Source of the DNA: an uncultured Methanoregulaceae archaeon
GTDB taxonomy: Archaea > Halobacteriota > Methanomicrobia > Methanomicrobiales > Methanospirillaceae
Assembly (NCBI GenBank): GCA_963737635.1
Contig: CAVTTL010000001.1
Span: forward strand, 928,001-992,000
DNA length: 64,000 nt
Direction: 5' to 3'
Shown: positions 13,682 to 18,393 of the stretch, piece by piece
Layout: the number at the start of each line of letters is the position of its first letter
Numbering within the stretch: position 1 is the first letter of the stretch
The notes under the pieces: model-generated
Told to the model about the DNA's origin: nothing
The model's input: the letters and a program-made list of their open reading frames with translations, nothing else
Databases searched by the model: none
Made by a program: the position numbers and the translations under genes

Positions 13682-14839
13682 ATGGCCTATAAGAGTTTGT
13701 GTGCGGTAAAAGGAGTCACCGCAAACGGTATTAAGGAAGGAAAGTTCGGTCTCGCCCTTATCCGGGCAAGTGGAACAGCGGCAGGCGTGTTCACATCGAA
13801 TCTTGCCAAGGCGGCACCGATTGAACTGATGCGAAAGCAGATTAAAAAAGGAAAACTGGACGCGGTGATCGCAAACAGCGGTTGCGCCAATGCCTATACC
13901 GGCAAGAGGGGATACGAAGACGCTGTTACCATGACAGACTATGCCGGATCCGCACTGGGCGTGGATGGTACCTCGGTCGGCGTGGCAAGCACCGGTGTTA
14001 TCGGCAGGTACCTTGATCTGCCCTTAATCCGGCGCCAGTGCGCGGATGTTGCGCTCAACCTTACTTCAACGCCGGATGCAGAGGACCGGGCGGTCCGGGC
14101 GATCATGACCACGGATCTCCATCCCAAACATGCGCTGGTCGAAAAGGAAGGTTTCACCATCGGGGCGATTGCCAAAGGAAGCGGCATGATCGCACCCAAC
14201 ATGGGTACCATGCTCGCGTTCATCTATACTGATGCGGAGATTGGGGCAAAGCCTCTCAGGGAGACGCTCAGGCAGGCGACAGCCCGGACATTCAACCGTG
14301 TCGTTGTGGACGGCGACACGAGTACCAACGACATCGCACTCTGCATTGCAACTGGTGAATCCGGGAAAGTAAATCTCGGGGAATTCTCCACCGCGCTCGA
14401 GGCGTGCTGCCGCTCGCTTGCGCAGCAGATCGCAGCCGACGGCGAAGGTGCAAGCAAGCTGCTCGAAGTCACCGTCCGGGGCGCCCCAAAAGAGGAGGCT
14501 GCCGCAAAAGTGGCCCGGGTCGTGATCGAATCGCCGCTCGTGAAGACGGCGGTATACGGTGAGGACCCCAACTGGGGCCGGGTCATTGCTGCGGCAGGCC
14601 GCGCCGGCGTAAAATTTGACCCTAACGCGGTCTCCCTCTGGATCAGCGATGGGAACAACCAGTATCCCCTGGTAAAATCCGGCGAGATCATTGCCGATCT
14701 GACAAAGGCCAAGGCTGCGATGCACGGTGACAAGGTTATTTTCGTGCTCGATCTTGGGGCCGGAAAAGAAGAAGCCACAGCATGGGGCTGCGACCTCACG
14801 GAAAAGTATGTCGAGATCAACGGGAGGTACACAACATGA
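13682..14839 (+). CDS. argJ: Ornithine acetyltransferase / N-acetylglutamate synthase
   Basis: [30 protein letters not shown] and DPNWGR motifs. Confidence 0.96.
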
Positions 14840-15711
14840 TGAAACGCGAGGACGTCCTGATGGAAGCCCTTCCTTACATCCAGCAGTTCCACGGTAAAAC
14901 GATCGTTATCAAGCTCGGGGGGCACGCGATGGTCGATCCGGTCGTCCTTGAAAACGCTATAAAGGACGCCGTCCTCCTCCATTATGTCGGGATCCACGTC
15001 GTGCTTGTCCATGGCGGGGGACCGGAAATCACCGAGAAGATGAAGGCCCTCGGAAAGGAATCGGTCTTTGTAGGGGGGCTTCGGGTCACCGATCAGGAAA
15101 CGCTCGAGATCGCCCAGATGGTGCTCGTCGGTAAGATTAACAAGGGAATCATCTCCCTGATTGCAAAATGCGGTGCAAAAGGCGTGGGGCTCTCGGGAAG
15201 CGACGGGAACATTATTATCGCAAAGAAAATGGATCTCCAGAAGATCAACGTGGAGGGTGTGGAACAGGAAGTCGACCTTGGGCGTGTCGGTGAGATCGAA
15301 TGGATCGATCCCGAGCTGCTCAATATCCTTCTTGAACGGGGGTATATCCCGGTTATCTCCCCGATTGCTATCGACCGGAATGGGGGGAATCTCAACATTA
15401 ACGCAGATACCGCCGCAGGGGACATTGCTGTCGCACTCAAGGCATACAAGCTGATCAACATGACCGATGTCGACGGCGTGATGGATGCGAAGCGAACCCA
15501 TGTTTTCCGTAAGCTCTCCATCAATGAGGCCCATTCTCTTCTTTCATCTGGCGCCATCGGCGAGGGAATGATCCCAAAAGTGACTTCGGTGATAAAAGCA
15601 GTGGAGAATGGTGTCCGCTATGCCCATATTATCAACGGCAACGTGGAGCACAACCTCATCCTCGAACTCTTCACCCATGAGGGTGTGGGGACAATGATCT
15701 CCCTCCAGTAG
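14836..15711 (+). CDS. argB: Acetylglutamate kinase
   Basis: EALPYI, VIKLGG, VHGGGP, NINAD and GMIPK motifs. Confidence 0.96.
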
Positions 15712-15788: not shown

Positions 15789-16193
15789 ATGGACAAGGTC
15801 ATAAAATTCGTTATTGCACTGTTTGTGATTATCGCTCTTGGAAGCCTTGCGTATGTTCTTTTTTCCGCCCCGGCATCTTCTTCCGGTACGACCTCGGCCG
15901 CAAACGATACTATCGTCTATTATTTCTATGGCCAGGGATGCCCGCACTGCGCAAAGGTTGAGCCATTCATGGAGAATATGACAAAAGAATATCCTGATGT
16001 CGATATCCGGATGCTCGAAGTCTGGTATAACCAGACCAACCAGCAGATCTATGCTCAGGTGAATGCGCAAGCAGGCATCTCCACACCACCGGGAGTACCT
16101 GAAATTGTCATCGGCAAAACGGTCCTTGTTGGAGAAGTTGATATCCCTGCAAAACTCGAAGGATACCTCCAGGCCATCGAAAAAAAAAAGTAA
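15789..16193 (+). CDS. Membrane-anchored thioredoxin/glutaredoxin-like protein (CPHC); possible N-terminal part of a frameshifted fusion
   Basis: N-terminal TM helix, YFYGQGCPHC and GVP cis-Pro motif; ends on an A10-G run followed by TAA. Confidence 0.8.
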   Translation: MDKVIKFVIALFVIIALGSLAYVLFSAPASSSGTTSAANDTIVYYFYGQGCPHCAKVEPFMENMTKEYPDVDIRMLEVWYNQTNQQIYAQVNAQAGISTPPGVPEIVIGKTVLVGEVDIPAKLEGYLQAIEKKK

Positions 16194-16201
16194 CCCCTGA
16201 T

Positions 16202-17271
16202 TTGTCAGGAGCGAAAAACCAGTCCTCAATCTCATCCCTCGGAACAGATCTGAATCGCACGGTTGTCGGGTACTTTTTCTACGGCGACGGGTGCAGCCAC
16301 TGCGATAATATAAAACCGTTTATTTCGGAAATACAATCCCGCTACCCGGATCTCGATCTCGAGCAGCTCGAGGTCTACCACAACGCCACCAACCAGGCCC
16401 TTTTCCTTGGGATGGATCAAAAGCTTGGCATACCTTCCGCAGGAGTCCCCACCATCATTATCGGCGACCATGTTCTCGTTGGCGAGGATCAGATCCGGAA
16501 CCAGCTGGAGCAGGTAATTCAGGAGGAACAGGCATCTCCCGCAAGTGCGGCACAGGGAAATGTAACCTCAGCCAAAAACTGCCCGGTACCTTCACGACCC
16601 TGACCGTGCCACTGGTGATCTTCTGTGCAGGAATAGACAGCATTAACCCCTGTGCATTCTCGGTCCTGATCATTCTCCTGCTCTCCATCATCGCTCTCCA
16701 GACCCGCCGACAGGTGCTGATGGTAGGAATCACGTACATCGCCGCGGTTTTCTTGTTTTATTTCATCTCCGGTATCGGTGTCCTCTCCTTTGTGCATGTT
16801 TCCGGGGTTTCAAGCCTGATATCACAGGCAGCGGCGATTATTGCCATCGTCCTTGGTTTAGTTTATATCGTTGATGCAGCGGTGAAGAAGGAGGGATTTA
16901 TCCTTGCCATTCCCGCCTCGAAAAAACCGGTAATCGAGCGCTATATCATGACTGCAACGCTTCCCGCTGCTTTTGTCCTTGGCGTCCTTGTGGGTATCTT
17001 TGAACTTCCCTGCACCGGGGGAATCTACCTGACTATTCTCAGCCTGATAAGTAATACCCTTACCCTTTCAGAAGGAATTCCCTACCTGCTCCTCTATAAC
17101 TTTATCTTCGTCATGCCGCTCATCCTGATCCTTATTGCTGTTGTCGTAGGTATACCTCCCGAACGGGTCAATGCGTGGAGAATGGAGAACCGCCGGAAGC
17201 TCCGGTTTGTTATTGGCTTCGCTATGATTCTTGTTGGGATCTTCATCTTCTTTGGCCCCCTCTTCTTGTAA
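16202..17271 (+). CDS. Thioredoxin-like (CSHC) domain plus CcdA/DsbD transmembrane domain; frameshift near 16583
   Basis: FFYGDGCSHC domain followed by DSINPCAF and FELPCTGG CcdA cysteine motifs; one missing base joins the two ORFs; no ATG start or signal peptide of its own. Confidence 0.75.
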
Positions 17272-17338: not shown

Positions 17339-17636
17339 TTACGGGCTGTTTTTTTTCGGCATGGGTTTTTCCAGGGCAGCCCGTTGTGCTTTCTCGTTCA
17401 TGGCGATAAGGGTCTCAAATATTGCCTTGATCGGGACTGGATCGATATGGTTTGCCTTTGAGAGTTTCATCACGTATTCGAGTACGTCGAGTTTGCGCTG
17501 GTTGTCATGGACCGGTATTCCCCGCTCCTGTTTGATGGCGGCGATTTTTCCGGCAAGGCTCTGCCCGGTGTGCGATGAGGTGGATAATCTCCTCATCGAT
17601 CTGGGTTATCTCCGCCCGGATCTCTTCAATTGTCAT
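17339..17636 (-). CDS. Chorismate mutase (AroQ type); frameshift near 17565
   Basis: MTIEEIRAEITQIDEEIIHLIAHR joins QSLAGKIAAIKQERGIPVHD..R when one G is removed. Confidence 0.8.
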
Positions 17637-17739
17637 AGGGAAGTACATTGCAGGAAAAAGTGATAAACGTGATGATGCGCTGTGGTACCCTACACGAAAA
17701 CACATATGACAGAAACGCACTATCTGATCCAGTGGTTTC

Positions 17740-18393
17740 ATGCTTGGAAAAATTACACGGCGCGAGGAATATGATCTTTTTGCTGCATGGCTGGCAGTAT
17801 CCCTTTCGTTTGCAATCATCAAACTGGCACCATACGGTGTTCTTGGTCCTATACAGCCCGTCGAACCGATGATTGCCCTGACTTATCTTGTTATTGCCCT
17901 TCTCACCGTGGGGATAGGTCTGGTGCTGCATGAACTGGCGCATAAATTCGCCGCCATAAAATACGGGTTCTGGGCTGAGTTCAGGAAAAGCAACTTCATG
18001 CTGCTCGTGGCAATTGCCCTTGCGGCGTTGGTGGGATTTGTGTTTGCTGCACCAGGCGCAACCGTGATCTCCAGCGTCAGGCCTGACGGAAGGCAGCTCA
18101 GCCGTGAAGAAAACGGGAAGATATCTGCAGCCGGGCCACTCACGAACCTCCTTCTCTGTATACCGTTTGCCTTCCTTCTTCTTGTCAGCGGAGGCCTCTC
18201 CCTCTCTCCGGGAAGCCTCCTCAGCCAGATTGGTATATTCGGGATCCAGATCAATGCCATGATCGCCGCATTCAACATGCTTCCGATCAGTATCCTTGAT
18301 GGGAACAAGGTTTTGTCCTGGAACATACCTGTTTTCGTGATACTGCTCGGGGTGTCATTCAGCCTGCTTGTGAGCTCTTTTTATATCCTCTGA
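17740..18393 (+). CDS. Site-2 protease (M50) family zinc metalloprotease
   Basis: HELAH, AAGP and FNMLP..LDG motifs. Confidence 0.9.
   Translation: MLGKITRREEYDLFAAWLAVSLSFAIIKLAPYGVLGPIQPVEPMIALTYLVIALLTVGIGLVLHELAHKFAAIKYGFWAEFRKSNFMLLVAIALAALVGFVFAAPGATVISSVRPDGRQLSREENGKISAAGPLTNLLLCIPFAFLLLVSGGLSLSPGSLLSQIGIFGIQINAMIAAFNMLPISILDGNKVLSWNIPVFVILLGVSFSLLVSSFYIL

Follow-up and report, generated by a model that had tools for sequence, protein, structure and literature searches.

A conserved A run at the frame junction of a thioredoxin–CcdA-like locus in Methanoregula, a candidate site of programmed recoding

Organization of the thioredoxin–CcdA-like locus

The window, a stretch of 64,000 nucleotides, belongs to a genome of 2.46 Mb (51.6% GC, 90% completeness, 4 contigs). 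The locus lies on the plus strand downstream of a presumably argB-like gene (14782..15711, plus strand, named from its sequence), which is conserved in relatives and served as synteny anchor. Its first ORF (15789..16193, TAA at 16191–16193) is the product of standard decoding and codes for a 134-aa thioredoxin, hereafter Trx1, with the motif CPHC, a PF00085 score of 26.3 bits (cut-off 23.5) and, by hydropathy, a single N-terminal hydrophobic segment at residues 7–25. Stand-alone equivalents with the same end point are found in two relatives, G013 and G010. As the initial annotation had described, the ORF ends GAA AAA AAA AAG TAA. The ten A's, read directly from the sequence, occupy positions 16180..16189 of the plus strand and are followed by a G at 16190; the heptamer A_AAA_AAG (16184–16190) lies inside this run, in phase with frame 0, and the run is the proposed slippage site. 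Among the 45 A/T runs of at least nine nucleotides in the genome, it is the only one that links a pair of open frames, each 80 aa or longer, at a -1 offset. Another A-run junction, at C1:1984669 with a +1 offset, was rejected, as it apparently joins chance ORFs adjoining a real minus-strand gene.

The -1 frame (16181..16600, plus strand) reads KKKVTPDLSGAK..., that is, KKK and an S/T/P-rich linker continuing into a second thioredoxin domain, Trx2, with the motif CSHC. Trx2 scores 19.2 bits against PF00085, below the cut-off; its CxHC motif is invariant nonetheless. The first ATG does not occur before +222 nt and hydropathy detects no hydrophobic segment within the 140 aa of this frame, which bears out the initial view that the downstream ORF has neither ATG nor signal peptide of its own. 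One TTG is present at 16202, 12 nt past the run. The frame had also been read as open through both Trx2 and CcdA; this holds for Trx2, but in the window as assembled the frame terminates at a TGA (16601–16603) upstream of CcdA, and the CcdA-like membrane domain (16585..17271, plus strand, TAA at 17269–17271) is in the third frame. This second frame break, at 16584, had gone unremarked. Read-derived contigs of sequencing runs X2 (depth 12.6) and X3 (depth 6.18) carry an extra G behind 16584, so that CCCGG (16582..16586, plus strand) becomes CCCGGG. The extra G brings Trx2 and CcdA into a common frame, matching all clean orthologs, which read ...NCPGTFTTLT... in a single frame across this position. 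Since the two contigs restore the frame, we conclude that the break between Trx2 and CcdA is an assembly error. A further assembly indel is probably present at 17564–17566, and the frame of a minus-strand ORF resembling chorismate mutase, intact in orthologs, is broken in this genome.

With the G restored, Trx2 continues into a membrane domain, putatively of the CcdA/DsbD superfamily, that has 6–7 hydrophobic segments by hydropathy. Two cysteines, C159 (NPC) and C279 (PCTGG), are invariant among 19 sequences, and we take these Pro-Cys motifs to be the CcdA signature. Against PF11139 (SfLAP/GAP), a family distantly related to DsbD, the window piece scores 36.3 bits (cut-off 35) and the orthologs 31.7–34.9 bits; no match to PF02683 was obtained in a family profile scan. 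An AF2 model of the in-frame fusion of relative G036 (mean pLDDT 63.3) shows beta-alpha-beta units in both thioredoxin domains (pLDDT 76–89) and is poor in the membrane part (32–71), and PDB searches by sequence and by profile matched only Trx/DsbA-type chains. DsbD, and CcdA together with ResA/CcmG-type partners, likewise couple a two-cysteine membrane domain to extracytoplasmic thioredoxin-fold domains. Unlike DsbD, the Methanoregula membrane domain is at the threshold for PF11139 only and far below the cut-off for the NCBIfam DsbD model NF001419 (21.8 against 330 bits), and its function is a predicted one.

Conservation of the junction across Methanoregula

An explicit list of 82 verified loci, on which all junction counts rest, comprises 69 distinct junctions. 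All come from Methanoregula-type genomes and have a membrane-anchored Trx1 in frame 0, followed by Trx2-CcdA in the -1 frame; as the orthologs are related by common ancestry, the counts overstate the number of independent cases. The run is A9 at 42 junctions, A10 at 25 and A11 at two, and is never shorter. An in-phase A_AAA_AAN heptamer is present at 69/69 junctions and a G follows the run at 48/69; the frame-0 stop begins 0–16 nt past the run, and the overlap between the two frames is only 10 nt at its shortest. The locus occurs in at least 66 of 108 Methanoregula genomes. With a stricter pattern, 57 of 103 genomes of the genus were positive versus none of 298 genomes from 43 other genera of the order, and control hits were zero. 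Six of the 32 pattern matches fetched within the genus lacked the frameshift layout: four were chance matches (G066, G085, G091 and G094) and two were in-frame fusions (G074 and G126). Judging by record names, the ortholog assemblies are of both the MEGAHIT/SPAdes and the long-read type. Across the out-of-frame lineages the CcdA domains are only ∼45–50% identical. Taken together, these comparisons make it most likely that a recoding site at the A run is conserved across the genus. The initial annotation had asked whether orthologs are simple in-frame fusions or independent genes with their own start; overwhelmingly, they are neither.

The length of the run is kept whatever the codon phase. Its first A is at codon position 1, 2 or 3 at 15, 23 and 31 junctions, respectively, and its extra A's are often provided by rare codons, namely TTA at 22 junctions, ATA at six and CTA at two (TTA makes up only 5.4% of Leu codons). 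The rare TTA codon is also kept in relatives in which the run has become dispensable, which weakens the argument from rare codons.

Conservation does not extend to the hairpin CCTGA-TTTG-TCAGG (5 bp; 16196..16209, plus strand) that follows the heptamer after a 5-nt spacer. It is present in the window, as the initial annotation had reported, and was there taken, together with the heptamer, for a dnaX/IS3-type signal. The heptamer and the stop proved to be conserved; the hairpin did not, being shared with only one (L086) of 46 other distinct junctions and disrupted in the next closest. The 50 nt past the window run fold with -5.9 kcal/mol (z = -0.63 versus dinucleotide shuffles), and over 47 junctions the corresponding segment gave a mean z of -0.27 versus -0.49 for a control window, with z below -2 in six versus five cases. 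A role as dnaX/IS3-type stimulator was rejected, and because the hairpin is weak and not conserved it is probably irrelevant.

The stretch between the run and the first Met of the downstream frame evolves as coding sequence. Among the orthologs, variability upstream of the first Met at codon positions 1, 2 and 3 is 0.31, 0.24 and 0.56, like that of the remainder of the gene, and the residues F, Y, G, C, H, C and P in this start-less stretch are invariant. The 360 codons downstream are intact at 58/69 junctions. At 51 of 67 junctions the -1 frame holds no ATG, GTG or TTG ahead of the Trx2 CxxC motif, and at 65 of 67 no ATG; the other 16 have some GTG or TTG before CxxC, and an ATG is found at two junctions. 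The upstream limit of the -1 frame in six close relatives is a TGA that overlaps the first A of the run. Public gene calls at these loci are 305–390-aa proteins named 'CcdA', 'GAP family' or 'hypothetical' that start within the thioredoxin active site or downstream of it. The annotated proteins of 305–315 aa begin after CxxC and would therefore be without an active site.

In-frame fusions and split-gene forms are nested within the out-of-frame clade. Relative G036 has an in-frame fusion of 492 aa with a run of A7, and its linker frame corresponds to the -1 frame of its sister locus L016. The in-frame fusions of G074 and G126 retain runs of A11 and A10, and stops occur 1–9 nt off in both other frames. 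G013, G010 and G014 each have a stand-alone Trx1 gene and a separate Trx2-CcdA gene that carries an anchor itself, and their runs are interrupted (TTA AAG AAA, TTA GAG AAA and TTA AAA AAG ACC, respectively). Thus, where recoding is not needed, the three split-gene relatives have an interrupted run, one in-frame relative has a run reduced to A7 and two keep A10 or A11. Every non-recoded relative has a Trx-CcdA with its own N-terminal anchor. Database entries include in-frame two-Trx CcdA fusions of 488–530 aa and apparent three-Trx forms of 600–643 aa, and the relatives are named there 'cytochrome c biogenesis protein CcdA', 'thiol-disulfide isomerase' or 'thioredoxin'.

Alternative readings and the proposed slippage

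That dozens of related genomes keep this arrangement suggests that the cell most likely slips by one base at the A run and makes both proteins, an anchored Trx1 and a Trx1-Trx2-CcdA fusion. The initial proposal that one locus yields, through a -1 shift, both an anchored short thioredoxin and a longer fusion is strongly supported by comparative genomics. A homopolymer error, with a true run length giving one in-frame gene, has in its favour that the assembly contains indels (the G missing at 16584 and the broken chorismate-mutase-like ORF) and is 90% complete in 4 contigs. The indel caution of the initial annotation holds for the assembly but not for the A run: the contigs of four sequencing runs from four studies (X2, X3, X6 and X7) retain the A10 run and its G (16180–16190) without indel while mending 16584, giving neither A11 nor A8. 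A search for sequencing runs that contain the stretch listed 13 DNA runs and no RNA run. The contigs are consensus sequences, in which minority run lengths are invisible, and X2 and the window perhaps share a source sample; the X6 contig differs from the window at 16 of 578 positions and the X7 contig at 30 of 440, and the three diverged strains represented in the four runs all have A10. The same -1 offset also recurs at the 69 distinct junctions, in many assemblies including single-contig and short-read genomes. We therefore reject the artefact reading, which is close to refuted and scarcely credible at this point. The gene thus holds one erroneous frame break and one that appears to be biological, a caution for long-read assemblies.

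If the run length is real, the out-of-frame consensus might instead be the OFF state of a phase-variable gene, or a broken gene that is tolerated. A9–A11 runs are hypermutable, G074 (A11) and G126 (A10) are in frame and one A from the out-of-frame state, and minority alleles would escape detection in contigs. Yet the 69 distinct out-of-frame junctions outnumber the in-frame cases (two long runs and one A7), lineages with diverged CcdA domains share the out-of-frame state, and the diverged strains agree in run length; the intact downstream codons and the coding constraint argue against an OFF-state pseudogene. We consider this reading very unlikely. Still less probable, in our view, is that the locus consists of two ordinary genes, with Trx2-CcdA translated alone from the TTG at 16202, from a non-canonical codon or by reinitiation, and Trx2 remaining cytoplasmic. 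Gene callers do annotate the downstream ORF on its own, and the window TTG and the minority of junctions with a GTG, TTG or ATG before CxxC offer possible starts; however, an independent start was rejected for most orthologs, 51 of 67 having no start codon there, and the short annotated proteins would miss the active site. Relatives with a true start all provide a thioredoxin anchor or signal, in-frame fusions occur, and a TGA in the six close relatives keeps the -1 frame closed up to the first A of the run.

Programmed recoding at the A run is thus the most likely reading, and what remains to be weighed is whether RNA polymerase or the ribosome slips. Tandem -1 slippage of ribosomes on A_AAA_AAG (or A_AAA_AAA/C/T), with the mRNA faithfully A10, would yield the same two products, after the manner of E. 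coli dnaX, IS3 elements and Saccharolobus fucA1; as every run holds an in-phase A_AAA_AAN heptamer, genomes and protein would look alike under either mechanism. The heptamer at every junction (of the form X_XXY_YYZ), the G that often follows the run and the nearby frame-0 stop all fit ribosomal slippage. So do the only proven archaeal frameshift, which according to PMC8211752 uses A_AAA_AAT (the heptamer of locus L077), and the poly-A sites of archaeal Mg-chelatase genes, for which PMC3711429 gives shifts of 10–63% in an E. coli reporter. Against it, downstream structure is not conserved, and the run is never shorter than nine although six or seven A's suffice for the ribosomal heptamer. The window genome codes for both tRNA-Lys(UUU) and tRNA-Lys(CUU), so that the rationale for A_AAA_AAG in E. 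coli does not carry over. In-frame relatives retain A10 or A11, an argument tempered by E. coli dnaX, which shows that ribosomes, too, can act at a slippery site whose long form is in frame. We regard ribosomal slippage as the main event as rather unlikely.

We favour recoding in which the archaeal RNA polymerase is mainly responsible for the shift, an assignment that the comparative data leave evenly balanced. Besides the minimum run length and the absence of conserved 3' structure, it fits the occurrence of the first A at all three codon positions and the rare codons that supply A's. According to PMC1088944, selection against A/T runs appears at nine nucleotides in many bacterial genomes, and a homopolymer of at least about nine at a frame junction marks candidates for transcriptional realignment; a run of A9–A11 stands at 69/69 junctions. 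Transcriptional slippage, an aside in the initial annotation, is accordingly rated here as the likelier mechanism.

In the proposed scheme, standard decoding of a single transcript would yield the 134-aa Trx1, anchored in the membrane and exposed outside the cell, with translation ending right after the run. A fraction of expression would enter the -1 frame within the A9–A11 run and give a membrane-anchored Trx1-linker-Trx2-CcdA protein. Here the polymerase would slip on the template T run and add one A (A10 to A11), creating an mRNA subpopulation in which the frames are joined. Only the -1 shift would give Trx2 and the CcdA-like domain a start codon and an anchor that places Trx2 outside. We infer that the fusion acts as a DsbD-like relay, in which electrons may pass from a cytoplasmic reductant through two membrane cysteines to Trx2 and on to Trx1. 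Anchored Trx1 on its own would serve as a diffusible acceptor or partner, with the slippage rate governing the proportion of the two products.

Comparison with known systems and implications

Close parallels exist in bacteria. In Thermus thermophilus dnaX (A9) and the two-ORF dnaX of the Chlorobi type (A10), an A run in a cellular gene likewise yields two proteins, one short and one long, as described in PMC1088944 and PMC3711429. These accounts have the long form in frame in some species and out of frame in others, as in G074 and G126 versus the 69 junctions, and stops near the run in the other frames, as at the Methanoregula locus. dnaX is a bacterial replication gene in which slippage is proven, whereas the Methanoregula locus codes for an archaeal extracytoplasmic redox protein for which slippage is proposed; unlike in dnaX, the long product would also gain a membrane-targeting N-terminus through the shift. 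Shigella flexneri mxiE (T9), as presented in PMC1088944, has overlapping ORFs and needs one non-templated nucleotide for the longer protein. It codes for a bacterial transcription activator and is known from few taxa, in contrast to the distinct junctions found genus-wide in Methanoregula together with in-frame and split derivatives.

Saccharolobus solfataricus fucA1, the only -1 frameshift demonstrated in Archaea according to a 2021 review (PMC8211752), is likewise a two-ORF gene with a -1 offset, a short overlap and an A-rich heptamer (A_AAA_AAT). Its site is 7 nt long and its frame-0 product is a non-functional fragment, unlike in Methanoregula, where the run measures 9–11 nt, frame 0 codes for a complete domain protein that has homologues standing alone, and many species share the arrangement. 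The Mg-chelatase genes of Methanocaldococcus, Methanococcus and some bacteria (A_AAA_AAR, poly-A 7–11) likewise have a conserved poly-A ORF overlap in methanogens; reporter values of 10, 40 and 63% for 7, 9 and 11 A's are given in PMC3711429 and PMC5009743. They represent another protein family and other archaeal orders, and have been tested heterologously only. A full-text literature search turned up no -1 frameshift in a methanogen redox system or in Methanoregula, and two of the three GeneTack cluster supplement files of PMC3711429 list no thioredoxin, no cytochrome c biogenesis protein and none of four Methanomicrobiales genera.

To our knowledge, transcriptional slippage has been demonstrated for no cellular archaeal gene. 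The locus may represent the first conserved programmed case, in which the polymerase adds one A and thereby fixes the stoichiometry of free Trx1 and relay, a possibility that we would place slightly short of an even chance. The recoding site is backed by 69 distinct natural junctions and by natural in-frame and split controls, and provides a testable system for asking whether slippage on A runs occurs in archaeal RNA polymerases or in ribosomes, and how frequent it is. Since public gene calls begin inside or after the active site, the extracytoplasmic thiol-reducing machinery of the genus is currently mis-described, and the correction concerns a dominant methanogen genus of peatland and soil. 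If the proposal is true, a Pol-II-like archaeal polymerase would slip at A9–A11, and the shift would deliver the only start codon and membrane anchor of the relay. The genus would then show repeated resolution of the recoded gene into in-frame, split-gene and single-domain forms, a natural series for the birth and loss of a recoding site.

Two frame breaks in the thioredoxin–CcdA locus

The 134-aa product of the Trx1 ORF (15789–16193) has a single hydrophobic segment near its N-terminus (residues 7–25), and its thioredoxin domain, with the motif CPHC, scores 26.3 bits on PF00085 (cut-off 23.5). As described in the initial annotation, the ORF ends GAA AAA AAA AAG TAA, with the heptamer A_AAA_AAG (16184–16190) in phase with frame 0; part of this heptamer lies in an A10 run at 16180–16189. 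The −1 frame at the junction, KKKVTPDLSGAK..., leads to a second thioredoxin domain (Trx2, motif CSHC) and contains no ATG over 222 nt and no hydrophobic segment. It had been read as open into CcdA, but in the window it terminates at 16601–16603, and it is the third frame that encodes the CcdA-like membrane domain, up to 17271. Two −1 offsets are thus found in succession, Trx1|Trx2 and then Trx2|CcdA. The source genome as a whole contains 45 A/T runs of at least 9 nt (longest T11), about five of them within or between long open frames; one candidate +1 A-run junction, at position 1984669 of the same contig, was rejected, as it looks like chance ORFs beside a real minus-strand gene.

The stretch is contained in 13 DNA sequencing runs (soil or other metagenomes) and in no RNA run. 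Logan contigs of four DNA runs from four studies (X2, possibly the source sample, X3, X6 and X7) were aligned to the window. Their only indel is a G inserted behind 16584, where the window has CCCGG (16582–16586) and the contigs of X2 (depth 12.6) and X3 (depth 6.18) have CCCGGG; X6 and X7 have no coverage there. With this G restored, the frame reads ...AKNCPGTFTTLTVPLV..., matching orthologs, and in relatives Trx2 and CcdA share a single open frame of about 356–382 aa. An error in the length of the A run, which the initial annotation had allowed for, is not borne out: the contigs of all four runs keep A10 and cross it gap-free, even where the strain has diverged (two such strains, differing at 16 of 578 and at 30 of 440 letters), a result that, with consensus sequences, covers the majority run length and leaves room for minority lengths. 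We therefore conclude that the Trx2|CcdA break in the window is an assembly error or a rare variant, and that the A-run break, Trx1|Trx2, is genuinely present in the DNA.

A minus-strand ORF at 17339–17822, which from its sequence we take to be chorismate-mutase-like, is likewise split into two frames (MTIEEIRAEITQIDEEIIHLIAHR... and ...SLAGKIAAIKQERG...) around 17564–17568; its orthologs in G020 (164 aa) and G003 (176 aa) are unbroken. Since this break, like that at 16584, falls at a CCCGG string, a motif-linked systematic indel error of the assembly is suggested. Trx2 and CcdA are also in separate frames in G033 (L013/L106), where the −1 frame ends at 139 aa. Two relatives of low completeness, G026 (locus L012) and G017 (L043), share one more break, located in Trx2 where the FFFYG codons contain a T9 run (−1 frame ...SAFFFMV... 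for the expected ...SAFFFYGDGC...); either a homopolymer error or a second slippery site that is real may account for it.

Conservation of the junction and its natural alternatives

A same-genus search with the CcdA part as query covered 36 genomes. Trx1 and Trx2 are in different frames in 22 of these, as well as in the source genome, and in every frame-split locus Trx2 is −1 relative to Trx1, with an A9–A11 run exactly at the junction. The same architecture was found in 33 of the best 80 loci of a named species-representative collection (31 by script, 2 by inspection); their labels are Methanoregula, Methanoregulaceae or Methanomicrobiales MAG, and the contig names point to a mix of short-read and long-read assemblies, with several single-chromosome records among them. 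A pattern search over all 108 genomes of the genus, with 32 regions retrieved, added 26 cases. Taken together, the 82 loci represent 69 distinct junctions, and each has the run (A9 in 42, A10 in 25, A11 in 2, none shorter) and a frame-0 stop starting 0–16 nt 3′ of it. Immediately 3′ of the run, 48 junctions have G, 16 have C and 5 have T. The overlap from the opening of the −1 frame to the frame-0 stop is at least 10 nt (median 37 nt), and the −1 frame is unbroken through CcdA in 58 of the 69, the others reaching a contig edge or having more breaks. At least 66 of the 108 genomes carry the architecture (23 + 26 + 17, the last being pattern matches identical in sequence to a verified named locus when compared by eye). 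A stricter pattern (A9, a gap of 62–92 nt, then FYG[D/E]GC codons) matched 57 of 103 genomes of the genus and none of 298 from 43 other genera of the order; its reversed control gave no match. The arrangement is far beyond chance.

We take the start-less stretch of Trx2 to be translated, as judged from the sequences. From the upstream stop to the Trx2 CxxC, the −1 frame has no ATG in 65 of 67 junctions and no ATG, GTG or TTG in 51, and in six close relatives it is opened only by a TGA overlapping the first A of the run. Among 19 clean orthologs, variability at codon positions 1/2/3 is 0.31/0.24/0.56 before the first Met of Trx2, compared with 0.40/0.33/0.62 in the remainder of Trx2 and 0.35/0.17/0.60 in CcdA; no variation is seen in the pre-Met stretch at F, Y, G, C, H, C and P. 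Public gene calls for the downstream ORF are truncated, with internal starts (285–315 and 360–390 aa), and those of 305–315 aa would start 3′ of the active-site cysteines. The names (P0003, P0100, P0113 and others) are CcdA family, GAP family or hypothetical, and none of those shown marks a slippage product.

In a maximum-likelihood tree of the CcdA domain (118 rows, IQ-TREE quick, SH-aLRT support only), all frameshift loci fall in one clade (support 97) with a few non-frameshift forms inside; a second tree of 73 rows agrees, with a minimum of five changes between frameshift and non-frameshift forms. G036, sister to the frameshift locus L016 (support 95–96), encodes an in-frame TM-Trx1-Trx2-CcdA of 492 aa with only A7 (CTA AAA AAA GAA CTG), and the reading frame of its linker corresponds to the −1 frame of L016. 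Fusions that are in frame yet retain the run, as A11 and A10, occur in G074 (open frame of 508 aa) and G126 (521 aa), and both other frames close 1–9 nt past the run. In G014, G013 and G010, Trx1 is a separate gene with the same end point, the Trx2-CcdA gene behind it has a start and a hydrophobic N-terminus of its own, and the run is broken (TTA AAA AAG ACC, TTA AAG AAA and TTA GAG AAA, respectively). G006, G001, G031 and G023 have a single TM-Trx-CcdA in the same place, adjoining the upstream neighbor. These in-frame, split-gene and single-Trx relatives indicate that each of the two predicted products has a stand-alone counterpart in nature; Trx2-CcdA lacks an N-terminal anchor only where a shift at the A run alone could supply one. 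That two products would arise from such a shift, as initially proposed, is so far well supported by comparative evidence, which is strong.

Polymerase slippage or ribosomal shift

A −1 shift by the ribosome and insertion of one A by RNA polymerase would lead to an identical protein (...EKKK-VTPD...), and each is compatible with every junction. Polymerase slippage is favored, though not decisively, because the run is never below 9, whereas the heptamer needs only 6–7 A's, and because the first A falls at codon positions 1/2/3 in 15/23/31 junctions, counts that come, like those below, from related rather than independent orthologs. Rare codons often furnish the extra A's: TTA (5.4% of Leu codons in 545 long ORFs of the source genome) in 22 junctions, ATA (13% of Ile) in 6 and CTA (2.8% of Leu) in 2. 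TTA persists, however, where the run has decayed. Slippage is also favored by the lack of a conserved downstream structure (mean z −0.27 over 47 junctions versus −0.49 in a control window placed 150 nt beyond). The hairpin at 16196–16209, assigned a role in the initial annotation, does exist, but it is weak (−5.9 kcal/mol for the 50 nt 3′ of the A run, z = −0.63), and among the 47 junctions L086 alone shares it, with L087 having a disrupted version; we consider it irrelevant. In E. coli, the special slipperiness of AAG is ascribed to a single tRNA-Lys; the presence of both tRNA-Lys(UUU) and tRNA-Lys(CUU) in the source genome thus again favors polymerase slippage over the ribosomal shift. So does the retention of A10/A11 by the in-frame relatives G074 and G126, since an in-frame run with nearby stops in the other frames resembles the geometry of Thermus dnaX (PMC1088944).

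Predicted products and place among known recoding sites

The membrane domain comprises 6–7 hydrophobic segments, and the cysteines of its NPC and PCTGG motifs are both invariant. It reaches threshold only for PF11139; its match to the transmembrane part of the DsbD model is weak (21.8 bits, cut-off 330), and its relatives are named 'cytochrome c biogenesis protein CcdA/thiol-disulfide isomerase/thioredoxin'. AlphaFold2 models the G036 fusion with a helix at the N-terminus and two thioredoxin-type domains at good confidence (pLDDT 76–89), but the membrane part is poor (pLDDT 32–71; mean 63.3); PDB sequence and profile searches gave matches only to thioredoxin or DsbA chains. The most economical reading is that the Trx1-Trx2-CcdA fusion would act as a DsbD-like outward electron relay. 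Free anchored Trx1 may be a mobile partner of this relay, and the slippage rate would then set the ratio of the two.

In-frame versions comprise two-thioredoxin forms of 488–530 aa and apparent three-thioredoxin forms of 600–643 aa. The latter (P0005–P0027, one named for an unclassified Methanoregula) have several thioredoxin-type Pfam matches and a CcdA-like domain, and look like a paralogous three-thioredoxin relay. Close homologues of the single-Trx-CcdA form (40–47% identity; L092, L093, L097, L099, L102, L108, L116, L121 and others) occur in MAGs labelled Woesearchaeota, Pacearchaeota, Nanoarchaeia, Nanohaloarchaea, Aenigmatarchaeota and Heimdallarchaeota; in the tree their position is beside a paralogue group from Methanomicrobiales, which hints at horizontal transfer or binning carry-over.

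We found no description of the site in the open full-text literature. Antonov et al. 2013 (PMC3711429) do not name thioredoxin, DsbD or cytochrome c biogenesis in the main text, of three supplements the two covered gave no match, and the available text of Atkins et al. 2016 (PMC5009743) does not mention thioredoxin, CcdA or DsbD. A 2021 review of archaeal recoding (PMC8211752) lists a single reported archaeal −1 frameshift, fucA1 of Saccharolobus solfataricus, and cites the Mg-chelatase of Methanocaldococcus/Methanococcus as a presumed case. We conclude that the site is a new, well-populated member of the A-run recoding class already known, in archaea, a domain of life with very few such cases.
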